DNA from: Blastocatellia bacterium
GTDB lineage: Bacteria; Acidobacteriota; Blastocatellia; UBA7656
Assembly (NCBI GenBank): GCA_963765495.1
Contig: CAVXWP010000008.1
Span: 96,001-160,000 of the forward strand
Length of the DNA stretch: 64,000 nt
Reading direction: 5' to 3'
The translations under genes and the position numbers were made by a program. The notes below the pieces were generated by a model. That model had not been told where the DNA came from, searched no databases, and worked only from the letters and a program-made list of their open reading frames with translations. Below are positions 2,951-63,453 of the stretch, one piece after another (position 1 is the first letter of the stretch; each line of letters starts with the position of its first letter).

Positions 2951-4282
2951 ATGACATCACCATTTCGCATTAGGGGAAAATACATATTGGCATGTCTTTG
3001 CGTGGTGCTTGCCGGGGCGCTGTTTTTATCCGCCTGCGGACGATCAAAAGCGACCACGGAAAACAACGATTCAAATGCTTCGACGGCCGAAGCCGCAGAG
3101 CTTCACCCCGTTGAGGTAACGACATCCGAGGCTACTTCGGAAGAAGTCCCGGCCTTTATTCAGGCGACCGGCAGTTTTGACGCCGATGAGACATCGGATG
3201 TGGCCGCGCAAACAAGCGGGCAGGTAGCGCAAACGCCTATAGACGTGGGCGCATTCGTAAAAAAGGGCGCGGTTATTGCAGTGCTTGATGCCAGGGACGC
3301 CCGGTTGAGATTCCAGCAAGCGCTCGCCGCAGAGCGACAAAATGAGGCTGCGCTCAGACAGGCAGAGGCCAAAATAGGGCTTCTCGAAGGAGGGACGTTT
3401 TCCGCCTCGGAAGTGCCCGAAGTTCGAGCCGCCAGCCAGAATTACGAGTCGGCCAGAGCACAGGCGGAACTCGCCGAGACGAATGCCCGCCGCTACGAAA
3501 ATCTGGTTGAAACCGGCGATGTCTCAAGGATGATTTACGACCAGGCGAAGACTCAGGCCGAAACGGCTCGCGCTCAGGCCAATGCGGCCCGCCAGCAGTT
3601 GGAAGTGGTTATAAACGTCGCCAAGCAGAACAATCAGGCCATAGCGCAGGCTCAGGCAAATCTGGATGCCGCGCGTTCGGCAACCGCGCTTGCGAGAAAG
3701 ACCGTCGATGATACAAACATAAGAGCGCCGTTTTCCGGCTATGTCAGCGACCGCCCCGTAGCTCCGGGCGAGTATATAACGCCCGCCTCGAAAGTGGTGA
3801 CCCTGCTCAGGACCGACCCGATAAAGTTGAAGCTCCAACTGCCCGAAGCCGACGCGGGCCGGGCACATCCCGGAATGACCGTAGTCGCTACGGTGACTGC
3901 TTTTCCTGATCGGGAATTTACAGGTAAGGTGACGATAATAAATCCTTCGATTGACCCGGTTTCGCGCACCGTGACGGTAGAGGCATATTTTGACAATCCC
4001 GGTAATGCGCTCAGACCGAATATGTTCGCAAGCGCGCGCATACTGCTCCCGGAAGGCGAGCAGGGAATCTTCATACCGAAATCTGCGATCATCACCGACT
4101 CGACCACGGCATCATCGCGTGTCTATGTGATAGACGGTACGGTCGCCCGGTTGCGCGTAGTGCAGACCGGACCCGAGATGGAGAACCGCGTGCAAGTGTT
4201 ATCGGGAGTAACGACGGGTGAAAAGGTCGCCACAAGCAACCTCGACCAGCTTTTCGACGGCGCGCAGGTGGTGCCTAAATGA
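2951..4282 (+). CDS. RND efflux periplasmic adaptor (MFP) lipoprotein
   Basis: Lipobox FLSAC, lipoyl-like halves, long coiled coil, IRAPFSG, LRPNMF. Confidence 0.93.
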   Translation: MTSPFRIRGKYILACLCVVLAGALFLSACGRSKATTENNDSNASTAEAAELHPVEVTTSEATSEEVPAFIQATGSFDADETSDVAAQTSGQVAQTPIDVGAFVKKGAVIAVLDARDARLRFQQALAAERQNEAALRQAEAKIGLLEGGTFSASEVPEVRAASQNYESARAQAELAETNARRYENLVETGDVSRMIYDQAKTQAETARAQANAARQQLEVVINVAKQNNQAIAQAQANLDAARSATALARKTVDDTNIRAPFSGYVSDRPVAPGEYITPASKVVTLLRTDPIKLKLQLPEADAGRAHPGMTVVATVTAFPDREFTGKVTIINPSIDPVSRTVTVEAYFDNPGNALRPNMFASARILLPEGEQGIFIPKSAIITDSTTASSRVYVIDGTVARLRVVQTGPEMENRVQVLSGVTTGEKVATSNLDQLFDGAQVVPK

Positions 4283-4352: not shown

Positions 4353-7300
4353 ATGCAGAAGTTAGCTGAGATATGTGTTCGCCGCCCCGTTTTTGCTACG
4401 GTACTGATACTAGCTCTTACCGTGGTGGGCATCTTTTCTTTCAACTCGCTCGGCGTAGACCTGTTCCCAAAGATTGATCTTCCGACTGTAACCGTCACGG
4501 TGGTCAATCCGGGCGCTTCGCCCCAGGAGATTGAAACCGAAGTCACCGACAAGATCGAAGGCGCTATCAATACCGTCAGCGGGATTGACGAATTGCGCTC
4601 GACTTCGGTCGAAGGCGTATCGCAGGTATTTGTCACATTTATTCTGGAAAAGAACCCCGACGTGGCCACGCAAGAGATTCGCGATAAGGTGAATCTGATC
4701 GTCGGCGACCTGCCGGAAACCGCCGAAGACCCTATCATTCAAAAGCTCAACACCGATGCCACGCCCGTTCTTCAGATAGCCGTTTCAGCGCCCGGCTCGC
4801 TACGCGATGTCACCTATGTTGCAGATAACCAGATCAAGCAGCGAATCGAGAGCATAAACGGCGTAGGCGAGGTGCAGATAGTCGGTCGCCAGCAGCGCGA
4901 GATTCACGTCTTTGTCGATCCAGATAAACTGCGCGCCTATAACGTCACTGTAGCCGAGGTAGCAAACGCCGTCCGCGAGCAGAATATGGAGGTGCCGGGC
5001 GGTCGCGTCGATCAGGGCACGCGTGAACTGACGGTCCGCACTATGGGGAAAGTAATCGACCCCAAACGGTTCAACGACATAGTCGTCGCCGTTCGCGGGT
5101 CGTATCCGGTCAAGGTCAGCGACATCGGCCACGCCGAAGACGGAACCGAAGAGCAGAGAACGGCGGCCCTGCTCAACGGGCAGCCCGCCGTCACGCTGGT
5201 TGTCTCGAAGCAATCGGGGCAAAACACAGTGGCGGTGGCCGAGGCTGTAAAACAACGCCTCGCCGAAATCAAACCGACTCTGCCACCCGACTATCGCGTA
5301 GAGGTGGTTGGCGATCAATCAATATTTATCAAGGCGTCGGTTGATGCGATCAAGACACACCTTGTCGAAGGCGGATTGCTTGCCGCGCTCGTGGTCTTTA
5401 TCTTCCTGTGGAATTTCCGCTCTACGATCATCGCGGCGGTCGCCATTCCTACCTCGATCATCGCGACATTCGGTTTGATGGCGGCGATGGGTTACACGCT
5501 GAATAAGATCACAATGCTCGCGCTCACGCTGATGGTCGGTATAGTTATTGACGACGCGATAGTTGTGCTCGAAAACATCTATCGCTACATCGAAGAAAAA
5601 GGCATGGCTCCGTTTCAGGCAGCCATCGAAGGAACACGCGAAATCGGTCTCGCTGTAATGGCGACTACGCTTTCGCTGCTGGCCGTCTTTATCCCCGTAG
5701 GTTTTATGGGCGGGATTGTAGGCCGTTTCATGTCCTCATTCGGTTTGACATCCGCATTCGCAATCGCGGTATCGCTTCTGGTGTCGTTTACCTTGACCCC
5801 AATGCTTGCGGCAAGGCTCATAAAGCGGCGCGAGACGACGATGGCTATCGCGAGCGGCGAGGCTGATGATGAAGCCCTGTCCGAGCGGGAAGCCGGTCCT
5901 GTGAAGGCGGATGTGGAGTCAAAGGAATCGCGTTTCTACAGACCCATTGATCGCACCTACACGATGTTATTGCACTGGTCGCTCGATCACAGGTGGGCGA
6001 TAGTTGGATTGTGCGGCCTCGTGATTTTGAGCATCGTCCCGCTCTTCATGTTTGTAGGTAAGAACTTTCTACCCGTAGACGATCAGGCGCAGTTCGAGGT
6101 ATCGGTTCGCGCGCCGGAAGGCTCGTCGCTCGCCGCTACATCGAGCATCGTTGAGCGAATCGCCACGGAAATTCGCAAGTTCCCGGGCGTACTTGAAACC
6201 CTGACGACGATTGGAGGCGGGCAGCAGCAACAGGTAAACAGCGCCTCGGTTTACGTCAAGCTCACGCCGATCGAACAACGCCACGTGTCTCAGCAGGAAT
6301 TGATGACGCGCGCGCGCGCGCTGCTCAAGCAATACCCGCAGGAACTGAGAACAAGCGTGCAGGATGTGGCGGCGGTTTCGGGTGGAGGTCAGCGCAACGC
6401 CGACATTCAATATGTGGTGAGCGGCCCCGATCTGCAAAAACTCACGGAGTATTCAGCCGTGCTGCTTGAAAAGATGAAATCAATCCCCGATGTGGTTGAC
6501 GCCGATTCGTCACTGGTTTCGGGTAAGCCGGAATTGCGCATCGTAATCGACCGCGCGCGCGCCGGTGATCTGGGCGTGAAGGTAGCCGATATAGCTCAGG
6601 CGCTCAACACGCTCGTAGCCGGGCAAAAGGTCTCGACCTTCAATGAAGGCAAGGACCAGTATGATGTGGTCGTACGGTCTACGGGGCAGTACCGCGCCAG
6701 CGCCGAGGGGCTTCAAAGGATGATCGTCACGTCGAGCAAAGCGGGATGGGTCAGCCTCGATAATCTCGTCAAGATTGATCCCGGCACAGGCCCGTCGAGC
6801 ATTGATCGCCTGAACCGTCAGCGACAGGTTACGCTTTCGGCAAACGTCAAACCGGGCGGCTCGCAGGCGGCTGTCATCAGCAAGATGAATCAGTTTGTAA
6901 AAGAGATGAAGATTGATCCGGGCTATCAGACGGGAACGGCAGGACGCTCGAAAGAGCTTGCGAAATCGGGCTACTACTTCCTGCTCGCATTCGCGCTGTC
7001 GTTTATCTTCATGTATCTGGTGCTTGCAGCGCAATTCGAATCTTTCATACATCCGGTGACGATTCTGCTCACGCTGCCACTTGCCATCCCATTCGGCATA
7101 CTGTCGCTTTTGCTGACCGGTCAGACCGTGAATATATTTTCCGGCCTCGGACTGCTCTTGCTGTTTGGCGTGGTAAAGAAAAACGCGATCTTGCAGATAG
7201 ATCATACGAACGGATTGCGCGCGCTTGGCATGACGCGCCAGGATGCGATCATTCAGGCAAACCGCGACCGGCTTCGCCCGATACTGATGACAACCATCGC

Positions 7301-7622
7301 GCTCGTTGCAGGCATGATTCCGCTGGTCGTTTCAAGCGGCCCGGGGTCGGGCACGAACAGATCAATCGGCGTGCTCGTAGTCGGCGGCCAATCGCTTTGC
7401 CTGCTGCTCACGCTGCTTGCCGTCCCGGTCTTTTACTCGTTGTTTGAAGACCTGGGCGAGTTGCGGATGTGGGGCTACATAGCCGAGCGGTACAAGATAG
7501 TCGCGGCCTATGCGAGTCGCCGATTTGCGCAAGCCGGATCATTGGCCGCAGGCATCTTCTCTCGCAAAGCAGGAAAGGAGAGTTACAAAGACAGATATGT
7601 TGACCATACATCAGGCGATTAA
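4353..7622 (+). CDS. RND efflux transporter permease (AcrB/HAE1 family)
   Basis: 1089 aa; RRPV, VGIVIDDAIVVLENI, KKNAIL, RLRPILMTT motifs. Confidence 0.96.
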   Translation: MQKLAEICVRRPVFATVLILALTVVGIFSFNSLGVDLFPKIDLPTVTVTVVNPGASPQEIETEVTDKIEGAINTVSGIDELRSTSVEGVSQVFVTFILEKNPDVATQEIRDKVNLIVGDLPETAEDPIIQKLNTDATPVLQIAVSAPGSLRDVTYVADNQIKQRIESINGVGEVQIVGRQQREIHVFVDPDKLRAYNVTVAEVANAVREQNMEVPGGRVDQGTRELTVRTMGKVIDPKRFNDIVVAVRGSYPVKVSDIGHAEDGTEEQRTAALLNGQPAVTLVVSKQSGQNTVAVAEAVKQRLAEIKPTLPPDYRVEVVGDQSIFIKASVDAIKTHLVEGGLLAALVVFIFLWNFRSTIIAAVAIPTSIIATFGLMAAMGYTLNKITMLALTLMVGIVIDDAIVVLENIYRYIEEKGMAPFQAAIEGTREIGLAVMATTLSLLAVFIPVGFMGGIVGRFMSSFGLTSAFAIAVSLLVSFTLTPMLAARLIKRRETTMAIASGEADDEALSEREAGPVKADVESKESRFYRPIDRTYTMLLHWSLDHRWAIVGLCGLVILSIVPLFMFVGKNFLPVDDQAQFEVSVRAPEGSSLAATSSIVERIATEIRKFPGVLETLTTIGGGQQQQVNSASVYVKLTPIEQRHVSQQELMTRARALLKQYPQELRTSVQDVAAVSGGGQRNADIQYVVSGPDLQKLTEYSAVLLEKMKSIPDVVDADSSLVSGKPELRIVIDRARAGDLGVKVADIAQALNTLVAGQKVSTFNEGKDQYDVVVRSTGQYRASAEGLQRMIVTSSKAGWVSLDNLVKIDPGTGPSSIDRLNRQRQVTLSANVKPGGSQAAVISKMNQFVKEMKIDPGYQTGTAGRSKELAKSGYYFLLAFALSFIFMYLVLAAQFESFIHPVTILLTLPLAIPFGILSLLLTGQTVNIFSGLGLLLLFGVVKKNAILQIDHTNGLRALGMTRQDAIIQANRDRLRPILMTTIALVAGMIPLVVSSGPGSGTNRSIGVLVVGGQSLCLLLTLLAVPVFYSLFEDLGELRMWGYIAERYKIVAAYASRRFAQAGSLAAGIFSRKAGKESYKDRYVDHTSGD

Positions 7623-9646
7623 AAAATTGTGGTCGGCCCGCAGCTCGCTTGCGCGACTCTTTGCGATGAGTCTCGTTGCGTCACTCGTAGCGGGAACGCT
7701 GCTGCCTTCAATGGTTGCGGCGCAATCCGGCCAGCAACAGCAACAACCGCAGCAACAGCAGACGCCTCCCACTGGGCAGCCGTCTGATCCTGCTCGGCAG
7801 AGCCCGCAGCCTGCGCCGCAGCCCGCGCCTACCCAGCAACAGACTCAACCGCAGCCGCAGCAGGGTCAGCAGGGTCAGCCATCCCAACAGGGGCAGCCGT
7901 CCGCGCCGGGCGGATTACAGCAGGTGCCCGCTACACCGGGGCAGGGCGTAGGCGATTCCGGCGTGATAATTCCGCCGCAAATGCCAAAGGAGCCGCCTCC
8001 CGTAGCGCCCGATTATCAGGCCCCGCTCCGGTCGCTACCCTCTGCCGAAAGAGTCGGCGTGGAACAAACCGAGCCTGCCTCGCTTACCTTGAGCGAGGCG
8101 ATAGCGCTTGCGCTTGCAAACAATAACGACATCAGCACCTCGCGCATAGATATAGAGATGGCCCGCTTTGACTTGAAAGCGGCTAAAGGCGCTTATGATC
8201 CGCAACTCTCTTCGGAAGCCTATTATGAAAAGCGCGAAACGCCGGTCGCCTCGTTTATCGGCGGCGGCCCAAACGGTAAGGTAACTACGTCCGATCTTAC
8301 CGGAAGCGTGAAACTGGCGGGATTGTCGCCCTGGTTTGGCGGGAATTATCAGGTTGATTACTCTTCGAGCCGCACGACTACGGATAACCTTTTCACTTCG
8401 CTCAATCCGCAATATCCGACCTCGCTGACCTTTACATATTCGCAGCCGCTGCTGCGCAATCTGACGATAGACGACAATCGCCGCCGCATCGAGATTGCCA
8501 AAAAGAACCTGACGCTTTCGGATTCCCAGTTTCGCCAGCGCGCAATCGAAACCATAACCCGCGTTCAGCAGGCTTACTGGGACCTGGCCTTCGCGCTTAG
8601 GAATTTGCAGGTTCAGATTGACGCGGTCAAACAGGCGCGCACTCAGGTAGAGAGCAATCGCCGACAGGTAGAGCAGGGAACCCTTGCGCCCATAGATATA
8701 GTCGCAGCCGAAACTCAGGTATCGACATTCGAGCAAAACGTCTACACCGCGCAGGAAGCCGTCACGCGAGCCGAAAATACGCTGAAGACGCTTATCCTGC
8801 CCACTCGCACCGCGCAACTCTGGAACAAGGCTATTCTGCCCGTAAGCCCTGTGACGCTTGAGCCGCCGGTTGTGCCGCTTGATGAAGCGGTCAATGCGGC
8901 GCTTGCAAACCGGCCTGAGATCGAGCAGGTTGAAACGAGCGCAGAGATCAATAAGATCAACACACGTTTCTTCAACAACCAGACAAAGCCGCAAATTGAT
9001 CTGGTAGGAGTCTTCAGCACGGTCGGGCTTGCGGGGACGATTGCCAATAACGGCGTCAATCCGCTATCAGCCGGAAACGTGGCGCTCACCGCGCGCGTCA
9101 ATGCGCTGTCTGAGTTGGCCGGGCTGCCGCCTCTGCCGCCCACTTCGACCGGGTCATTGCCTGATCTATTGATCGGAGGCCCTAGCCAATCATTCACAAA
9201 CCTTTTTGGATTCAATTATCCGGCAGCGCGCATAGGGCTTCGGTTCTCGTTTCCGGTGGGCAATCGCACGGCCGAAGCAAATCTGGGAAAATCGCTTGCC
9301 GAAGGGCGCCGCATCGGCAACCAGCGCGAGCAATTGAAACAGGTGATCGAATCAGAGGTGCGCAATGATTTACAGGCGGTGAAATCGGCTCAGGCAAGAC
9401 TCGCCGCCGCCGCGTCTGCTCGCTCTTCGGCGGAGCAGCAATACGAAAGCGAGCAGCGTAGATTTCAGGCCGGGCTTTCTACCGTGTTTCTCGTTCTTCA
9501 ACGGCAGACCGAATTGATAGCCGCTCGCGGAAGAGAGCTTCAGGCCCAGACGGATTTGAACAAGGCCATAGCCGAATTTTATCGCGCGACCGGCTCTACA
9601 TTGCAGATCAACAACGTCACGGTTCGCACCGATACAGATAGTAAGA

Positions 9647-9651
<5 letters not shown>
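7597..9651 (+). CDS. TolC family outer membrane efflux protein with Gln/Pro-rich N-terminal linker
   Basis: LTLSEAIALALANN, VQQAYWDL, RRFQAGLSTVFLVLQRQ; operon context; start could be 7597 or 7666. Confidence 0.9.
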
Positions 9652-10851: not shown

Positions 10852-11739
10852 ATGAATAGAATAAGATTTGTGGCAGTAATCCTAACGGTGATTTCGCTCA
10901 TGGGGATGGGCGTGGCCGCTCAGGCAGCACAGCGAGGCTACCGCCCTAATGAAAGACAGTTCAGAAGCCTTGTCTCAAGAATCGAGACCGGCGCTGATCG
11001 TTTTCGCTCAAGCCTGGATGCGGCGCTCGACCGCAGCCCTATCGACGGCACGAGAGAGGAAGACAACATAAACCAGTTTGTCAAAGATTTCGAACAGGCA
11101 ACCAATCGTCTCAAGGATCGCTATAATGACAATCGAGCCGTCAACGACGATGCGGAAGAGGTCCTCAGACGCGGGGCGGTCATTGATAGTTTTATGCGTC
11201 GTCACAGGCTTGCGGGGCGGGCCGAAAGCGATTGGGCTTACTTGCGGAGGAACCTCGATAGTCTGGCGAGGCTCTACAGGATTTCGTGGAACTGGGATGA
11301 GCGATATAATCGCCGCAATCGAGATGACAATGGTTCGTATCGCGACAATGATCGGTCGAATGGTTCAAGTCGGCGCGCTTATTATGTAAGCGAAGGGCAG
11401 TTAAGGTCTTTGATAAGCCGCATAGAGAACGAGGCTGACCGTTTTCGCTCAAGCGTGGACTCCTCGCTCGACCGCAGTCGTATCAACGGTTCAAGACGAG
11501 AGGACAACATAAACCAGTTTGTCAAAGATTTCGAACAAGCGACCAACGATCTCAAGAACCACTTCAATGATGGTCGGTCAACAACCGGCGATGCCGAAGA
11601 AGTGCTTAGACGCGGAAAGGCTATTGATAGCTTTATGCGCCGCGCCCGGCTTTCGAGCCGAGCCGAAAATGACTGGCGCTCATTGCGCAGAGACCTCGAT
11701 ACCCTGGCCCGGTATTACAGGGTTTCCTGGCGCTGGTAA
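10852..11739 (+). CDS. Secreted protein with two tandem approx. 105-aa helical domains
   Basis: Signal peptide; two near-identical domains (ADRFRSS.D..LDRS.I.G.R.EDNINQFVKDFEQATN.L...DW..LRR.LD.LAR.Y...W.W); AGGAG RBS. Confidence 0.85.
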   Translation: MNRIRFVAVILTVISLMGMGVAAQAAQRGYRPNERQFRSLVSRIETGADRFRSSLDAALDRSPIDGTREEDNINQFVKDFEQATNRLKDRYNDNRAVNDDAEEVLRRGAVIDSFMRRHRLAGRAESDWAYLRRNLDSLARLYRISWNWDERYNRRNRDDNGSYRDNDRSNGSSRRAYYVSEGQLRSLISRIENEADRFRSSVDSSLDRSRINGSRREDNINQFVKDFEQATNDLKNHFNDGRSTTGDAEEVLRRGKAIDSFMRRARLSSRAENDWRSLRRDLDTLARYYRVSWRW

Positions 11740-11958: not shown

Positions 11959-12630
11959 TTGGGAATGAAGCCTTTCAATATGATTAAATCGCCGGAAATT
12001 CCTTATCTGTTGATGGGGGTCTGCGCTTTGCTGATCTTCTGTTTATTGATTGCGACATCAGCCTGCCGGTCATCGAATGAGAGCGATCAGCCCGCCGATT
12101 TGATGGCAGTCAAATCGCCCGTTACGGGTGAGGTGAGGCGAATTCTTGTAGGTGAGGGATTGCCCGTAAACGAAGGCGCGGCAATCCTTGAAATCGCGGT
12201 CAAAGAAGTGACCGATAATACCGGGCAAGGCCAGGCGGGCGCGGAAGCGAGCGCCCGCTCGGCTCTTGCCGCTGCGCAAAAAGAGATAGCCGATGCCGAA
12301 TCCGACAGCGCGCGGGCAGCGGTCGAAGTCCAGCGAGTGCAATCGCTTGTGGCTACGGGGGCCGCGCCTCAGTCGCAGCTTGATGCGGCAAACGCTCAGT
12401 ACCAGCAGGCGCAGGAGCGTCTGCAACGAGTTCGAGAACGCGCTCAGAGCGCGCAGCGGGTACTGACGACTCGTGAGGGAAGCCCCGCAAATCAACCTCC
12501 CCCGGCTCAGGAAAAAATCATCGAGGTGCGCGTGCCCTCTTCGGGAGTATTGCGAGTGCTAAACGCTCGCGTAGGCCAGCGAGTCACCGCCGGACAGACC
12601 ATTGCCACGCTCTCTAAAAATAACCCTTAA
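11959..12630 (+). CDS. Short HlyD/MFP-like lipoprotein (lipoyl halves plus coiled coil)
   Basis: Lipobox IATSAC; VKSPVTGEV...V.EG, helical hairpin, VRVPSSG...VGQRVTAGQ; start uncertain. Confidence 0.7.
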   Translation: MGMKPFNMIKSPEIPYLLMGVCALLIFCLLIATSACRSSNESDQPADLMAVKSPVTGEVRRILVGEGLPVNEGAAILEIAVKEVTDNTGQGQAGAEASARSALAAAQKEIADAESDSARAAVEVQRVQSLVATGAAPQSQLDAANAQYQQAQERLQRVRERAQSAQRVLTTREGSPANQPPPAQEKIIEVRVPSSGVLRVLNARVGQRVTAGQTIATLSKNNP

Positions 12631-12691: not shown

Positions 12692-13723
12692 ATGAAATAC
12701 AATCGTCTTGGAAATACCGGCCTGAAAGTTTCTGAACTATGCCTCGGCACCATGACCTTTGGCTCGAACTTTTACAACATAGGCACGCTGGGGCAAGAAG
12801 ACTCTACCCGCATGGTAGCCCGCGCTCGCGATGCGGGGATAAATTTCTTTGACACGGCGGATATGTATTCGTTCGGCGAGTCGGAGAAGATACTCGGGCA
12901 GGCCGTAAAGGATATTGGCGCGACGAGGGAATCGGTAGTCATCGCGACCAAGGTCCGCTCGCCTATGAGCGAAGCCGCGTGGAAAGGTACGGGCGACTTT
13001 AACAACGTCGGTCTTTCGCGTAAGCATATTTTCGAAGCGTGCGAGGCGAGTCTGAAACGGCTTGACATGGATTACATTGATCTTTATCAGGTGCACGGCT
13101 GGGATGTGGTTACGCCTGTAGAAGAGACCTTACGCGCGCTTGATGATCTTGTGCGGGCGGGCAAGGTGCGCTATCTGGGATGCTCTAACTGGACGGCGCG
13201 CCATCTGGCGAAGGGGCTTGGTCTGGCGGGTGCGCACGATTGGAGCGGGTTCGTCTCTTTGCAGGCATACTATTCGCTGGTGGGTCGTGACCTCGAGCAC
13301 GAGCTTCTCCCGCTTTGCGTAGAGGAGGGGCTTGGAGTGCTGCCGTGGTCGCCGCTTGCCGGGGGCTTTCTTTCGGGCAAATACCGCCGCGACAGTGAGC
13401 CGCCGGAAGGCTCGCGCAGGGTTGATTTCGATTTTCCGCCGATTGACCGCGAGCGCGGCTATGATGCAGTAGAGGCGCTCGATCAGATAGCGAAAGTGAA
13501 GGACGCATCCGTGGCTCAGGTTGCGCTTGCGTGGCTGCTCGCTCAGGAGGGAGTGACATCGGTCATCATCGGCGCGAGCAAGATGTCTCAACTCGAAGAC
13601 AACCTGAAGGCTGTGGATGTGGAATTGACCGATGAGGAAGTGGCGCGAATTTCTGCGACGACAGCGCCTGAAAAGCTCTACCCCGCGTGGATGGTCGAGC
13701 GCCAGAACGAGGGAAGAAGATAA
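12692..13723 (+). CDS. Aldo/keto reductase
   Basis: LGNTGLKVSELCLGTMTFG, FFDTADMY, IATK, IDLYQVH, LPWSPLAGG. Confidence 0.95.
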   Translation: MKYNRLGNTGLKVSELCLGTMTFGSNFYNIGTLGQEDSTRMVARARDAGINFFDTADMYSFGESEKILGQAVKDIGATRESVVIATKVRSPMSEAAWKGTGDFNNVGLSRKHIFEACEASLKRLDMDYIDLYQVHGWDVVTPVEETLRALDDLVRAGKVRYLGCSNWTARHLAKGLGLAGAHDWSGFVSLQAYYSLVGRDLEHELLPLCVEEGLGVLPWSPLAGGFLSGKYRRDSEPPEGSRRVDFDFPPIDRERGYDAVEALDQIAKVKDASVAQVALAWLLAQEGVTSVIIGASKMSQLEDNLKAVDVELTDEEVARISATTAPEKLYPAWMVERQNEGRR

Positions 13724-13728
13724 AAGGT

Positions 13729-14121
13729 ATGAAAGCAGAAAGCGGGACGGCTGATTCGATAGAAATCAGGCAGGCGATCAACATCGGGCCACGGGAACGA
13801 ATAAAGCGGCGCGTACTCGGCATAGTGTCTCTGATGGTCGGGGCCGGGCTGGCATTCGCGCTTGTGGCCTATCACGCGCCGGTGTTTGTGCGCCTGCTTG
13901 TTTTCTTCCCCTTGTGGATGGCCGGACTTGGGCTCTTTCAGGCGCGGGAAAAGACCTGAATCGCAATGGCGGCGCGTGGGACGCGCAATATGGACGCGGG
14001 CGAAGAGCCTGTTGAAGATGAGAAATTACTTGCGCGGCTCAGATTGCAGGCCCGTCGTATCCATCGGCGGGCTCTCATCGTAGCCGTTGTGCTGACGCTT
14101 TTGATCTTACTGATTCCCTGA
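13729..14121 (+). CDS. Small membrane protein with in-frame UGA at codon 77 (candidate selenoprotein, 130 aa)
   Basis: After TGA 13957-13959 the frame continues 53 codons (IAMAARGTRNMDAGEEPVEDEKLLARLRLQARRIHRRALIVAVVLTLLILLIP) to TGA 14119-14121; SECIS-like hairpin follows the UGA. Confidence 0.65.
13960..13990 (+). promoter_or_regulatory. SECIS-like stem-loop
   Basis: Stem GCGCGT (13972-13977) / ACGCGC (13981-13986) with GGG apical loop; 12 nt separate the UGA from the stem and 18 nt from the loop. Confidence 0.55.
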
Positions 14122-14154
14122 TGTGGGTGTAATTGTATGGCAGGAGGTAGAAAA

Positions 14155-14601
14155 ATGTTTAGAGTATCGCGCCGAATACTGGTTCTTGTGATCTGTATAA
14201 TAATCGGCATCATAGCAATTGAGCGCCGCGATAAACCGGCTGTGGCGGCTGATTCACTGGCCGCGCAGGATATATCGAGCCTTGACCGGCGCATCAACTC
14301 TGTCGAGCAACGGATATACTCGATAGAATCGAGCATAAATCAACTTCGCCAGCAAATGATAGATGCCAGGCGTTCGTCATCGTCCCTGTCGTCGGATAAC
14401 CGCGACCCCGAAACAGAACGGCTGCGCCTGGAAGTCGATATGTTGCAGAGGCGTATCGTCGAGATCGAATGCGGACTTGTAAAACTCGACCAGCGGACCC
14501 TGCCTGAGAGCGCCCGTACCGCAAGCAAAGGCGCTGCGGCGGCAAAAGACCCTTGCCGCCAGCAGCCCAATACTCCCGTCCAGCTTTCCAGTAGGCAGTA
14601 A
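14155..14601 (+). CDS. Hypothetical exported coiled-coil protein
   Basis: N-terminal hydrophobic segment, heptad pattern LDRRINSVEQRIYSIESSINQL, two Cys; GGAGG RBS. Confidence 0.75.
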   Translation: MFRVSRRILVLVICIIIGIIAIERRDKPAVAADSLAAQDISSLDRRINSVEQRIYSIESSINQLRQQMIDARRSSSSLSSDNRDPETERLRLEVDMLQRRIVEIECGLVKLDQRTLPESARTASKGAAAAKDPCRQQPNTPVQLSSRQ

Positions 14602-61281: not shown

Positions 61282-63331
61282 TCTTGCCTATCTGCACGAG
61301 ATTGTCGTAAAAAGTGGCTCCCCCGCTTATATCGGTTAGCGCCTGTGAGACCGTTTGATTGACGTTGCCTAGACCGGGGCTGAGCTTGTTCCACCATATG
61401 GAGAGCGCCACGGCGACACCCGGTTTCACGCGCTCCGATATTCGAGCCACAAGCAGGCACTCGCCTCTATCGTTCCACACCCGCGCCATATCACCATCCG
61501 ACAGATTGCGACTTGCCGCATCAGCCGGATTCAGTTCTATGAAAGGCTGGCGCTCGCTTCTCAGAAAAGTGGTCAGGTGCGAAAAAGAGGTGTTAAGAAA
61601 CGAATTCGCGGGCGGGCTTATTAATTGAATTGGGAAACGCGCTGCAAGCTTGGGCGCGCTTTCGGGCGATTCTCTCGGCGGTATGTAATCGGGTAAGGGG
61701 TCGAGCCCTGCCCATTCCATCGCCTCAGAATAAAACTCGCATTTGCCAGATGGAGTGCTGTAGCCGCCTTCGGCAAACGGCGCGAACGTCAAAGGAAGAT
61801 TGAGCCTTGCCCAGCCGTCGCGCTTCAAGCGTTCGAGCGTAATGCCTTCGAGCACAGGGCTCCCCGACCCAAGCGCCTGCCGAATGATGTCTTCATCCGT
61901 GTCCTTGAAGCAGCCTTCCTCAAATCCCATCCGATCAGCCAGCAACCTGAAGACCTCCGAGTTTGGTTTCGCTTCGCCAAGCGGCGCGATGGCCGGCTCG
62001 TTGTAAACCAGATAATAGTGGCCGTAGGGTTTCACAATATCGCGGTGTTCGAGTTGCGTAGTCGCGGGCAGCAATATGTCGGCATAATCTGCCGTGTCGG
62101 TCTGGAACTGCTCGTGGACCACCGTGAAAAGGTCTTCGCGCTTAAACCCTTCGATTACTTTTGATTGGTCGGGCGCGATTGCGGCCGGGTTTGAATTGTA
62201 TACATAGATTGCCCGAACCGGCGGGTCGAGCCGGGTGAGCGCCTCGCCCAGCCGCGACATGTTTACCGTGCGCGGATTGCCTCGGATCAGATCGGGCCTT
62301 TGAAGTTTTGCATCGTCAAAGGCGAACATCCCGCTGCTCGACAGCAGCACGCCTCCGCCCGCATCGCGCCACGCACCCGTGAGCGCAGGCAGGCAGGCGA
62401 TTGAGCGAACAGCCATGCCCCCGCCCGCGTGACGTTGCAGGCCGTAATTTACCCGTATCACGGCCGGGCGCGTATTCGCGTACTGGCGGGCAAACTCTAT
62501 GATCTCGCCTTCCCGCAGGCCGCAGATGGAAGCCGCGCGCGAGGGTGGGAACTCCGCCACACGCTCGCGCAGCTTATCAAACCCAATCGTATGTTGATCG
62601 ATATACTGACGGTCTTCGAGCCCTTCACTCAAGATCACATTCATAACGGCAAGGGCGAAAGCTGCATCCGTGCCGGGGCTGAGTTGTATCAACTGATGGC
62701 AGTGATCGAGCGTGTGATTGCGGTAAGGATCAATGCCGATCAGGCGAGCGCCGTTTTCCACGGCTTCCTTGATTTCTGGCCACAGATGAATGTTTGATGA
62801 AAGCGTATTCGTTCCCCACAACACGATCAACCGGGCGAGATGGAAGTTCTCCATGTCTGTTCCGATGGTCGCGCCTACGGTAAATCGCATCGCGTCTCCG
62901 CCTGTAGATGAACAGATCGTGCGAGCCAGCAAACTTGCGCCGAGACGGTGAAAGAAACGACGGTCCATGCTCGACCCGTTGACGGTTCCCATTGTTCCGC
63001 CATAGCTGAAAGGGAGGATAGATTCGGGGCCGTCTGCGGAATCGCTTGTCTCTTGAAATCGACGGGCGATAATCTCTAGAGCCTCGTCCCAGGTGATGCG
63101 CTCGAACCGGCCTTCGCCTTTCTTGCCTATGCGGCGCTGCGGGTAGAGCAGGCGGCCCTCGTTGTAAACCCGTTCGAGATAGCGCGTCACTTTCGTGCAG
63201 AGAAAACCTCGGGTAGTCGGATGATCGGGGTCGCCCGACACGCGAGTGGCGCGACCGTCTTCGACTTCGACAAGCATCGCGCAGGTGTCGGGGCAATCGT
63301 GCGGACAGGCGGCATGGATGATACTCTTCAT
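61271..63331 (-). CDS. Molybdopterin oxidoreductase (DMSO reductase superfamily, 4Fe-4S)
   Basis: ACPHDCPDTC...LC.K, RTICS, TDTADYADILLPA, C-terminal double-psi barrel. Confidence 0.92.
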   Translation of the reverse strand: MKSIIHAACPHDCPDTCAMLVEVEDGRATRVSGDPDHPTTRGFLCTKVTRYLERVYNEGRLLYPQRRIGKKGEGRFERITWDEALEIIARRFQETSDSADGPESILPFSYGGTMGTVNGSSMDRRFFHRLGASLLARTICSSTGGDAMRFTVGATIGTDMENFHLARLIVLWGTNTLSSNIHLWPEIKEAVENGARLIGIDPYRNHTLDHCHQLIQLSPGTDAAFALAVMNVILSEGLEDRQYIDQHTIGFDKLRERVAEFPPSRAASICGLREGEIIEFARQYANTRPAVIRVNYGLQRHAGGGMAVRSIACLPALTGAWRDAGGGVLLSSSGMFAFDDAKLQRPDLIRGNPRTVNMSRLGEALTRLDPPVRAIYVYNSNPAAIAPDQSKVIEGFKREDLFTVVHEQFQTDTADYADILLPATTQLEHRDIVKPYGHYYLVYNEPAIAPLGEAKPNSEVFRLLADRMGFEEGCFKDTDEDIIRQALGSGSPVLEGITLERLKRDGWARLNLPLTFAPFAEGGYSTPSGKCEFYSEAMEWAGLDPLPDYIPPRESPESAPKLAARFPIQLISPPANSFLNTSFSHLTTFLRSERQPFIELNPADAASRNLSDGDMARVWNDRGECLLVARISERVKPGVAVALSIWWNKLSPGLGNVNQTVSQALTDISGGATFYDNLVQIGKSDS

Positions 63332-63453
63332 AATTGTCCTCTACGCTTTAGAAGAATACATGTTTGCAAGCACGATTGAAACTACGGATCGGTTGTAAGG
63401 CCCAACCGGGCATAGTATTCTGATGAGCATTCCAGTCCGGGGAGAGATCGCGT

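Follow-up and report, generated by a model that had tools for sequence, protein, structure and literature searches.

We analysed a stretch of 64,000 nucleotides from a Blastocatellia bacterium (NCBI GenBank assembly GCA_963765495.1, contig CAVXWP010000008.1, positions 96,001 to 160,000 of the forward strand), hereafter the window, and followed up an original prediction that a small gene within it encodes a membrane selenoprotein. From its ATG the frame of this gene runs to ...FQAREKT and then meets an in-frame TGA, after which 53 further codons stay open up to a second, terminal TGA (Table 1); the product has 130 residues if the first TGA is read through. The public gene call at the locus, a protein of 76 amino acids (P0074), halts at the internal UGA. 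The next gene downstream has two candidate starts, ATG 14137 and ATG 14155, the latter leaving a gap of 33 bp. Both the coordinates of the open frame and the 33-bp gap had been given in the original prediction and were borne out, the gap with ATG 14155 as the next start. Our analysis indicates that this is, with high probability, a real gene for a selenoprotein of a family that we did not find described, with selenocysteine (Sec) predicted at codon 77. Because the open extension and the hairpin that follow the UGA are, by themselves, within chance, the significance of the locus comes only from comparison with other genomes.

Table 1. Features in and around the putative selenoprotein gene (window coordinates)
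Feature	Position	Strand	Remarks
Putative Sec gene	13729..14121	+	130-residue predicted three-helix inner-membrane protein, selenocysteine predicted at codon 77; start fixed by alignment
In-frame UGA, putatively read as selenocysteine (U77)	13957..13959	+	directly after transmembrane helix 2, predicted cytoplasmic side
SECIS-like hairpin (SECIS, selenocysteine insertion sequence)	13972..13986	+	arms GCGCGT 13972-13977 and ACGCGC 13981-13986; loop GGG 13978-13980
Genuine terminal stop TGA	14119..14121	+	terminal stops of orthologues vary, internal TGA does not
Aldo/keto reductase	12692..13723	+	Pfam Aldo_ket_red, E 2.4e-83; ends 5 bp upstream of the putative Sec gene
Cut-down periplasmic adaptor, 223-residue lipoprotein	11959..12630	+	Pfam Biotin_lipoyl and HlyD_3; NCBIfam RND_mfp sub-threshold
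TolC-like outer-membrane efflux protein	7510..9651	+	Pfam OEP, E 3.7e-44
Resistance-nodulation-division (RND) permease	4353..7622	+	Pfam ACR_tran, E 4.2e-284
Full-length periplasmic adaptor (membrane fusion protein, MFP) of RND pump	2951..4282	+	NCBIfam RND_mfp, 241 bits; Pfam HlyD_D23

The internal UGA and its cysteine counterpart

In order to find relatives, the read-through protein was used as a query, and 193 proteins were recovered at E <= 0.01. The best 120 of these 193 were nearly all full-length (117-139 residues, query coverage 58-99%); they came from Blastocatellia and Pyrinomonadaceae assemblies and were named 'hypothetical' but for two. Those of 118-133 residues aligned with 86-99% of the query. 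The homologues span both halves of the read-through protein, and the column of the UGA was occupied by cysteine (Cys) in 29 of 29 aligned close homologues. Among the 150 best distant representatives the column held Cys in 140 and another residue in 4, that is, Cys for 140 of 144 residues; the six others broke off directly behind '...REKT' and are thereby recognised as Sec forms with a wrong gene call. Proteins of the pattern NIG...RRR...LQA...C, to which the original prediction referred, do exist: they are members of this family, and probably also YgaP-like/DUF2892 relatives.

Six-frame searches covering 401 genomes of the phylum, 401 of the class and six extra regions yielded 40 loci in 39 genomes, with 17 TGA, 20 TGC and 3 TGT codons at the column. 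A scan of species-representative genomes gave 80 loci, of which 79 were parsed (L106 was not). With 23 of these already present in the first set, 56 were new, and they comprised 23 TGA, 31 TGC and 2 TGT. Over all 96 distinct loci the column was TGA in 40 (Sec forms) and TGC in 51 or TGT in 5 (56 Cys forms), and TAA or TAG was found in 0 of the 96. The terminal stops of the same 96 genes were mixed (TGA 54, TAA 27, TAG 15), and the restriction of the internal column to TGA differed from the terminal distribution of 54 TGA to 42 others (Fisher p 2e-8, uncorrected for kinship). Both a Cys at this column and a TGA that is never TAA or TAG were therefore found as anticipated.

Sec and Cys forms occurred side by side within four genera (g10, g267, g284 and g285). 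The best trees contained 9 state changes for 40 rows and 26 for 96 rows, and well-supported branches alone forced just one Sec/Cys change. A Lys-Thr pair (AAR ACY) stood directly before the site in 40/40 TGA forms versus 28/56 Cys forms, which suggests an upstream context requirement for recoding. A second Cys, nine codons further on (+9), was present in 45 of 56 Cys forms and 9 of 40 Sec forms, and in only 30 of the 150 distant members, where Arg was the commonest residue (77). Since this second Cys is unconserved in the wider family, residue 77 would be the single reactive centre, and since a Sec/Cys pair marks a chemically active residue, it would also be the functional centre of the family. 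Arg at +9 was considered as an adaptation specific to Sec forms; this candidate was weakened by its frequency in the wider, Cys-bearing family.

Translation beyond the UGA

The 52-60 codons after the TGA were open in 40/40 Sec forms. We measured the ratio of nonsynonymous to synonymous divergence (dN/dS) in the 40-locus set, that is, the first 17 Sec and 23 Cys forms, in which synonymous divergence is near saturation (pS about 0.61). The 17 Sec forms had a median pairwise dN/dS of 0.31 over codons +1 to +49, the 23 Cys forms one of 0.28. The region after the TGA is thus under purifying selection in these Sec forms, as it is in the Cys forms, and a decaying remnant is excluded by this value. 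A dead gene, in which a nonsense mutation of the Cys codon or an error of assembly had produced the TGA, would have in its favour that TGA is one step away from TGC or TGT, and that public annotation treats the codon as a stop (P0074). As the same TGA was found in 40 independent assemblies, each with an intact downstream frame, and selection on that frame persists in the 17 Sec forms measured, we consider this explanation hardly credible.

Clear translation of the downstream part would equally be expected of a split gene, in which a 76-residue two-helix protein ended at the UGA and a restart at ATG 13966, or its equivalent elsewhere, produced a one-helix partner of about 51 residues. Start codons close behind the UGA are indeed common. 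In this genome ATG 13966 lies 6 nt after the UGA; ATG or TTG occupies position +3 in 22/40 Sec forms; Met at +3 is found in 19/40 Sec versus 1/56 Cys forms, as re-initiation would have it; and some ATG, GTG or TTG lies within 11 codons of the UGA in 36/40 Sec forms. The orthologues, however, do not follow this pattern throughout. While the first such in-frame codon stands at +11 in 12 Sec forms, it is found only at +17 in L005, at +27 in L141 and at +29 in L027, and L142 has no in-frame ATG, GTG or TTG after the TGA at all. In these four the peptide ahead of the late or absent start is still conserved, and separate initiation therefore cannot explain them.

A split would, moreover, remove exactly the most conserved residue of the family. 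A plain stop should also drift to TAA or TAG like the terminal stops, whereas the internal codon is TGA in 40/40, and the stronger hairpin of the Sec forms with its GGG loop codon (see below) would be left unexplained. The AUG at +3 can be read in another way, as the 5' side of a lower stem, since in the alignment, by eye, it can pair with the C-A-U of codons +10/+11 beneath the hairpin. Separate translation from ATG 13966 had been named beforehand as an observation that would speak against a selenoprotein: the ATG is present here, but as a general explanation it is excluded by the orthologues that lack such a start. We hence regard a split gene as very unlikely, and a single protein read through the UGA as the better account.

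The hairpin and the selenocysteine machinery

RNAfold predicts a hairpin after the UGA, and its geometry is that of the original prediction: a 6-bp stem starting 12 nt after the UGA, with a GGG loop 18 nt after it. For comparison across loci, a window of 24 nt (+10 to +33) was folded. All 40 Sec forms had a hairpin at one position, with energies from -6.6 to -11.1 kcal/mol (mean -9.06), whereas the 56 Cys forms ranged from -1.7 to -11.7 kcal/mol (mean -6.24) with mixed structures (Mann-Whitney p 6e-11, uncorrected). The core 5 bp were paired in 197 of 200 cells among the Sec forms, and the loops were GGG, CGGGA, GGC or GUU. Compensatory changes from G-C to A-U were seen in 3 sequences, the closing pair was U-A (this genome) or C-G (8 sequences), and four sequences with a shifted register retained a G-rich three-base loop. 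The clearest synonymous-site signal for the hairpin is the glycine codon in the loop, which was GGG in 33/40 Sec forms versus 8/56 Cys forms, where GGC dominated; within the four mixed genera the counts were 5/7 and 0/9, respectively. Codon entropy at +5 to +9 was 0.5-0.8 bits in 17 Sec forms versus 1.05-3.0 bits in 23 Cys forms, and flanking codons were equally variable in both sets (40-locus set).

The machinery for selenocysteine was found in the genome, as the original prediction had proposed to look for: it encodes SelA (467 bits), SelB (374 bits, above cut-off), SelD (386 bits) and one tRNA-Sec with anticodon tca. It also carries, outside the window (G000:C10:124691-127717), an fdhA gene for a formate dehydrogenase alpha subunit with one in-frame TGA, which served as an internal control. 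The fdhA hairpin has 7 bp and a GGUCU loop, with 11 nt separating the UGA from its stem; if the U of the UGA is taken as nucleotide 1, the loop starts at nucleotide 22 in both this hairpin and the GGG hairpin. One SelB would have to read both of them. SelA was present in 15/15 other Sec-form genomes and in 20/23 Cys-form genomes. We dropped its co-occurrence as a supporting argument, since SelA is near-universal in the class (100/101 genomes) and its presence in 16/16 Sec-form genomes is therefore only a necessary condition. As a separate observation, a weak match to a formate dehydrogenase/molybdopterin oxidoreductase model lies within the window on the minus strand (62582-63376; G000:C8:158582-159376); it contains one in-frame TAG and gives a frame of 734 residues if read through.

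Read-through need not involve selenium. The hairpin might help a near-cognate tRNA for Trp or Cys at the UGA, or slow termination, and this would explain an open, conserved downstream frame with a structure after the stop; the loop, which lacks the U of the fdhA hairpin of the same genome, would also fit. It would leave aside that Cys at the column in all intact relatives is the classical Sec/Cys signature, that the genome holds a complete Sec machinery together with another UGA selenoprotein, and that the loop lies as far from the UGA as does the loop in fdhA. The field criterion, as worded in PMC1088965, comprises at least two Cys homologues, TGA/Cys pairs above 50%, and a stem-loop whose small apical loop contains G; by our reading the new gene has each of these. 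We see little room for selenium-free decoding and favour insertion of selenocysteine.

Several findings weigh against a selenoprotein, in addition to the start codons described above. In G+C-rich DNA an open extension of 53 codons is unremarkable taken alone, and a 71-nt stretch containing the hairpin folds at chance level (z = -0.87; 34 of 200 shuffles were as good). The core cells also pair in Cys forms (230/275, many as G-U), some of which fold as strongly as Sec forms, at the lower end of the range given above. The conserved peptide Ala-Ala-Arg-Gly-Thr-Arg/Cys itself fixes much of the stem. So little variation is found there that formal covariation is weak: changes on both sides were seen in 2 of 6 pairs (4 cells), and the score was reached by 27 of 500 shuffles. 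The hairpin is thus supportive and not proven by covariation; of the covarying hairpins envisaged at the outset, conservation in 40/40 TGA forms held up, and formal covariation was weak. A kinship-corrected test of the association of the TGA with the hairpin or the GGG codon, underpowered with 3 independent pairs on well-supported branches, gave about 2.7 concordant pairs (sign test p 0.25). The loop is GGG and not the G-U-containing loop of fdhA hairpins, and no Rfam family matched positions 13850-14150, the sole hit being a long non-coding RNA at a meaningless E of 1. The near-universal SelA belongs here as well. Finally, selenium insertion at residue 77 is inferred from sequence comparison, and the functional link to efflux discussed below is drawn from gene neighbourhood only.

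Protein family, gene neighbourhood and known systems

The structure of the protein was modelled with AlphaFold on an alignment (A1) whose first row had Cys at both TGA positions; the last residue of the model is an artefact, because the terminal TGA was entered as Cys. The best model reached a predicted local distance difference test score (pLDDT) of 87.8 and a predicted template modelling score (pTM) of 0.76, and the other four models 63-69. It contains helices at residues 21-47, 52-74, 78-83 and 98-127 and a small beta hairpin at 85-94; the first, second and fourth helices are hydrophobic. By eye we counted 7 Lys or Arg ahead of the first of these hydrophobic helices, 1 in the loop that leads to the second, and 11 between the second and the third, a distribution that suggests that the N-terminus and the segment of residue 77 face the cytoplasm. 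A homodimer prediction on two copies of the Cys-form alignment, run without controls, scored 0.00, which speaks neither for nor against oligomerisation.

Neither the read-through protein nor the Cys homologue P0004 matched any Pfam or NCBIfam model at E <= 1, and a further homologue, P0014, gave two unrelated sub-threshold hits. A profile search of 1.84 billion representatives nevertheless recovered 1,731 clusters at E <= 0.001, 496 of them at E <= 1e-10; the family, which is unnamed, thus has about 1,700 clusters at 50% identity, and one distant member is labelled Gemmatimonadales. Foldseek of the AlphaFold model against the PDB gave 0 matches at E <= 0.001, and YgaP did not appear among the matches listed; when profiles A1 and A6 were compared with PDB sequences, nothing came out below E 0.04, and YgaP was not matched; and the ESM Atlas look-alikes of P0004 were unnamed clusters only.

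The commonest weak Pfam hit in 95 distant members was PF11127 (5/95, best E 0.0012); no family member exceeded its gathering threshold, and the read-through protein had no hit to it. In profile-profile comparison with 31 PF11127 domains of the phylum, the broad profile aligned over 72 columns with 84.5% probability (P 6.9e-6), and the narrow profile over 22 columns with 27% probability. YgaP of E. coli, a bearer of such a domain, is described as a dimeric membrane sulfurtransferase with a cytosolic rhodanese domain (PMC4730233). Like the YgaP-like transmembrane domain (PF11127/DUF2892), the new family has the motif N-[IV]-G-x-x-[DE]-R-x-x-R-x-x-x-G, two transmembrane helices, and Thr-Cys after helix 2. 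Unlike PF11127 members it lacks their Cys-Pro motif and has an extra 50 residues (short helix, beta hairpin, long helix and third transmembrane segment), and unlike YgaP it was never fused to rhodanese among the proteins examined. We read this as a probable distant kinship with the two-helix domain, of which the family would be an extended relative and not a member.

Upstream of the gene lie the components of a tripartite efflux pump (Table 1). The 223-residue adaptor gene stood directly upstream of the Sec/Cys gene in 33/39 and 76/79 loci. Its product, with a lipobox-like Cys after the signal peptide (by eye), consists of lipoyl halves and a coiled-coil hairpin only, without the barrel and membrane-proximal domains; we know of no described role for such a cut-down form. 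An open reading frame (ORF) homologous to the TolC-like protein was found upstream on the same strand in 71/79 loci, and the best orthologue of the RND permease lay about 3 kb upstream, also on the same strand, in 5/5 genomes tested. The TolC-like protein is itself unusually long (713 residues, OEP repeats from near residue 194), and about 110 bases at the end of the RND gene are shared with its longest ORF. In other genomes, in-frame TGA codons were seen in paralogues of this permease, one in G685:C29:124335-125993 and two in G561:C9:246890-248125; a broken gene or a joining of frames might account for them, or some other cause.

The aldo/keto reductase does lie 5 bp upstream, as had been noted, but the hint of a membrane redox module that was drawn from it fails, because the reductase is not a conserved neighbour: a homologue stood beside the gene in 0/39 related loci. 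It seems to have been inserted in this genome only, between two genes that are adjacent in nearly all relatives. Two other neighbours are recorded as side observations. The ORF at 10852-11739 encodes a secreted-looking protein of 295 residues, conserved at 0/39 related loci, whose two halves are nearly identical, each about 140 residues long with much Arg, Asp and Asn; that at 14137-14601, downstream, encodes a membrane-anchored coiled-coil protein of 154 residues, conserved in a minority (6/39, and a 16-locus cluster among 79).

More divergent loci were taken from metagenomes, 80 in all and Cys forms only, because the search pattern contained Cys and could recover no others. Where 1 kb or more of upstream sequence was available, a HlyD-family adaptor (MFP) lay directly upstream in 14 of 36 loci; where 4.5 kb or more was available, 8 of 18 had the full set of ATP-binding cassette (ABC) protein, MacB and adaptor upstream. 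Other contexts were also met, for example arylmalonate decarboxylase and luciferase-like monooxygenase. The recurrence of adaptors from two classes of pump, RND and MacB, is the ground on which we infer a role in efflux.

Taken together, these findings suggest the following scheme. The gene would be translated into one inner-membrane protein of 130 residues, its UGA being decoded as selenocysteine by SelB and tRNA-Sec under the direction of the coding-region hairpin, which would act as a bacterial SECIS. Sec77, Cys in most relatives, would be the one nearly invariant reactive residue of a large family and would sit where helix 2 exits the membrane on the cytoplasmic side. The gene travels with the periplasmic-adaptor genes of tripartite efflux pumps, and its product may serve these pumps as an accessory membrane component that is redox-active or binds a ligand. 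That a thiol or selenol at the cytoplasmic mouth of so small a three-helix protein is a working part of RND- and MacB-type tripartite efflux machines is a tentative idea, and we think it rather doubtful; there it could serve as a gate sensing redox state or electrophiles, or as a capture site passing soft metals, metalloids, or reactive sulfur or selenium species to the pump.

If that idea is true, no earlier efflux system of such kind would have had a selenoprotein subunit. The scheme as a whole would add a membrane-embedded family without a thioredoxin fold to the bacterial selenoproteome. Gene calls would be corrected, namely P0074, which stops at the UGA, the 40 assemblies with the in-frame TGA, and the 6 of 150 distant representatives cut there. 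The repeated placement beside periplasmic-adaptor genes yields a testable idea, a role in the efflux pumps of soil Acidobacteria and their neighbours.

As regards known selenoproteins, Table 1 of a 2026 inventory lists 119 prokaryotic families or subfamilies, nearly all with a Pfam, NCBIfam or CDD identifier (PMC13188914). The new family is absent from the 119 families of that table, and their Pfam and NCBIfam (NF, TIGR) models gave no match, families with a cd or PTHR identifier only being outside the scan. The nearest-sounding motif family of the table, LULAxC (TsoA, NF045695), did not match the new protein. Among the membrane selenoproteins of the inventory are the mercuric transport protein, YeeE/YedE, SaoP and the SO_0444 Cu/Zn efflux transporter, and most of its entries 'predicted with high confidence' have the same kind of evidence as the new gene (PMC13188914). 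Within the accessible text of the literature on selenoproteins (Acidobacteria, Blastocatellia, Pyrinomonadaceae, DUF2892/YgaP, efflux) the family was not found, and survey supplements, for example that of deep-Sep (PMC12013277), might list it. Comparison thus supports what had been predicted for the protein, namely Sec at codon 77, 130 amino acids, three helices and no recognised Sec family.

Among efflux systems there is a possible parallel. AcrZ, which acts with AcrB, is a small accessory membrane protein of a tripartite efflux pump. Like AcrZ, the new protein is small, predicted to lie in the inner membrane, and encoded with pump genes (RND in Blastocatellia, MacB-type ABC in other soil bacteria). 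Unlike AcrZ it has three helices instead of one and a conserved reactive Cys/Sec, and we claim no kinship in sequence.

A close comparison is with bacterial selenoprotein genes whose SECIS lies in the coding region and is read by SelB, formate dehydrogenase being the prototype. Like these, the new gene has a UGA that aligns with Cys and a small G-containing loop on a short, G+C-rich stem, and, as in known selenoprotein genes, Sec and Cys interchange among its close relatives. Side by side with fdhA of the same genome, the distance from UGA to stem is 12 versus 11 nt and that from UGA to loop is identical, whereas the loop is GGG instead of GGUCU. The new protein is a different one, a tiny integral membrane protein without a thioredoxin fold and without UxxC or CxxU, and it has a single reactive residue. 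This is a known kind of system with a new member family, not a new mechanism.

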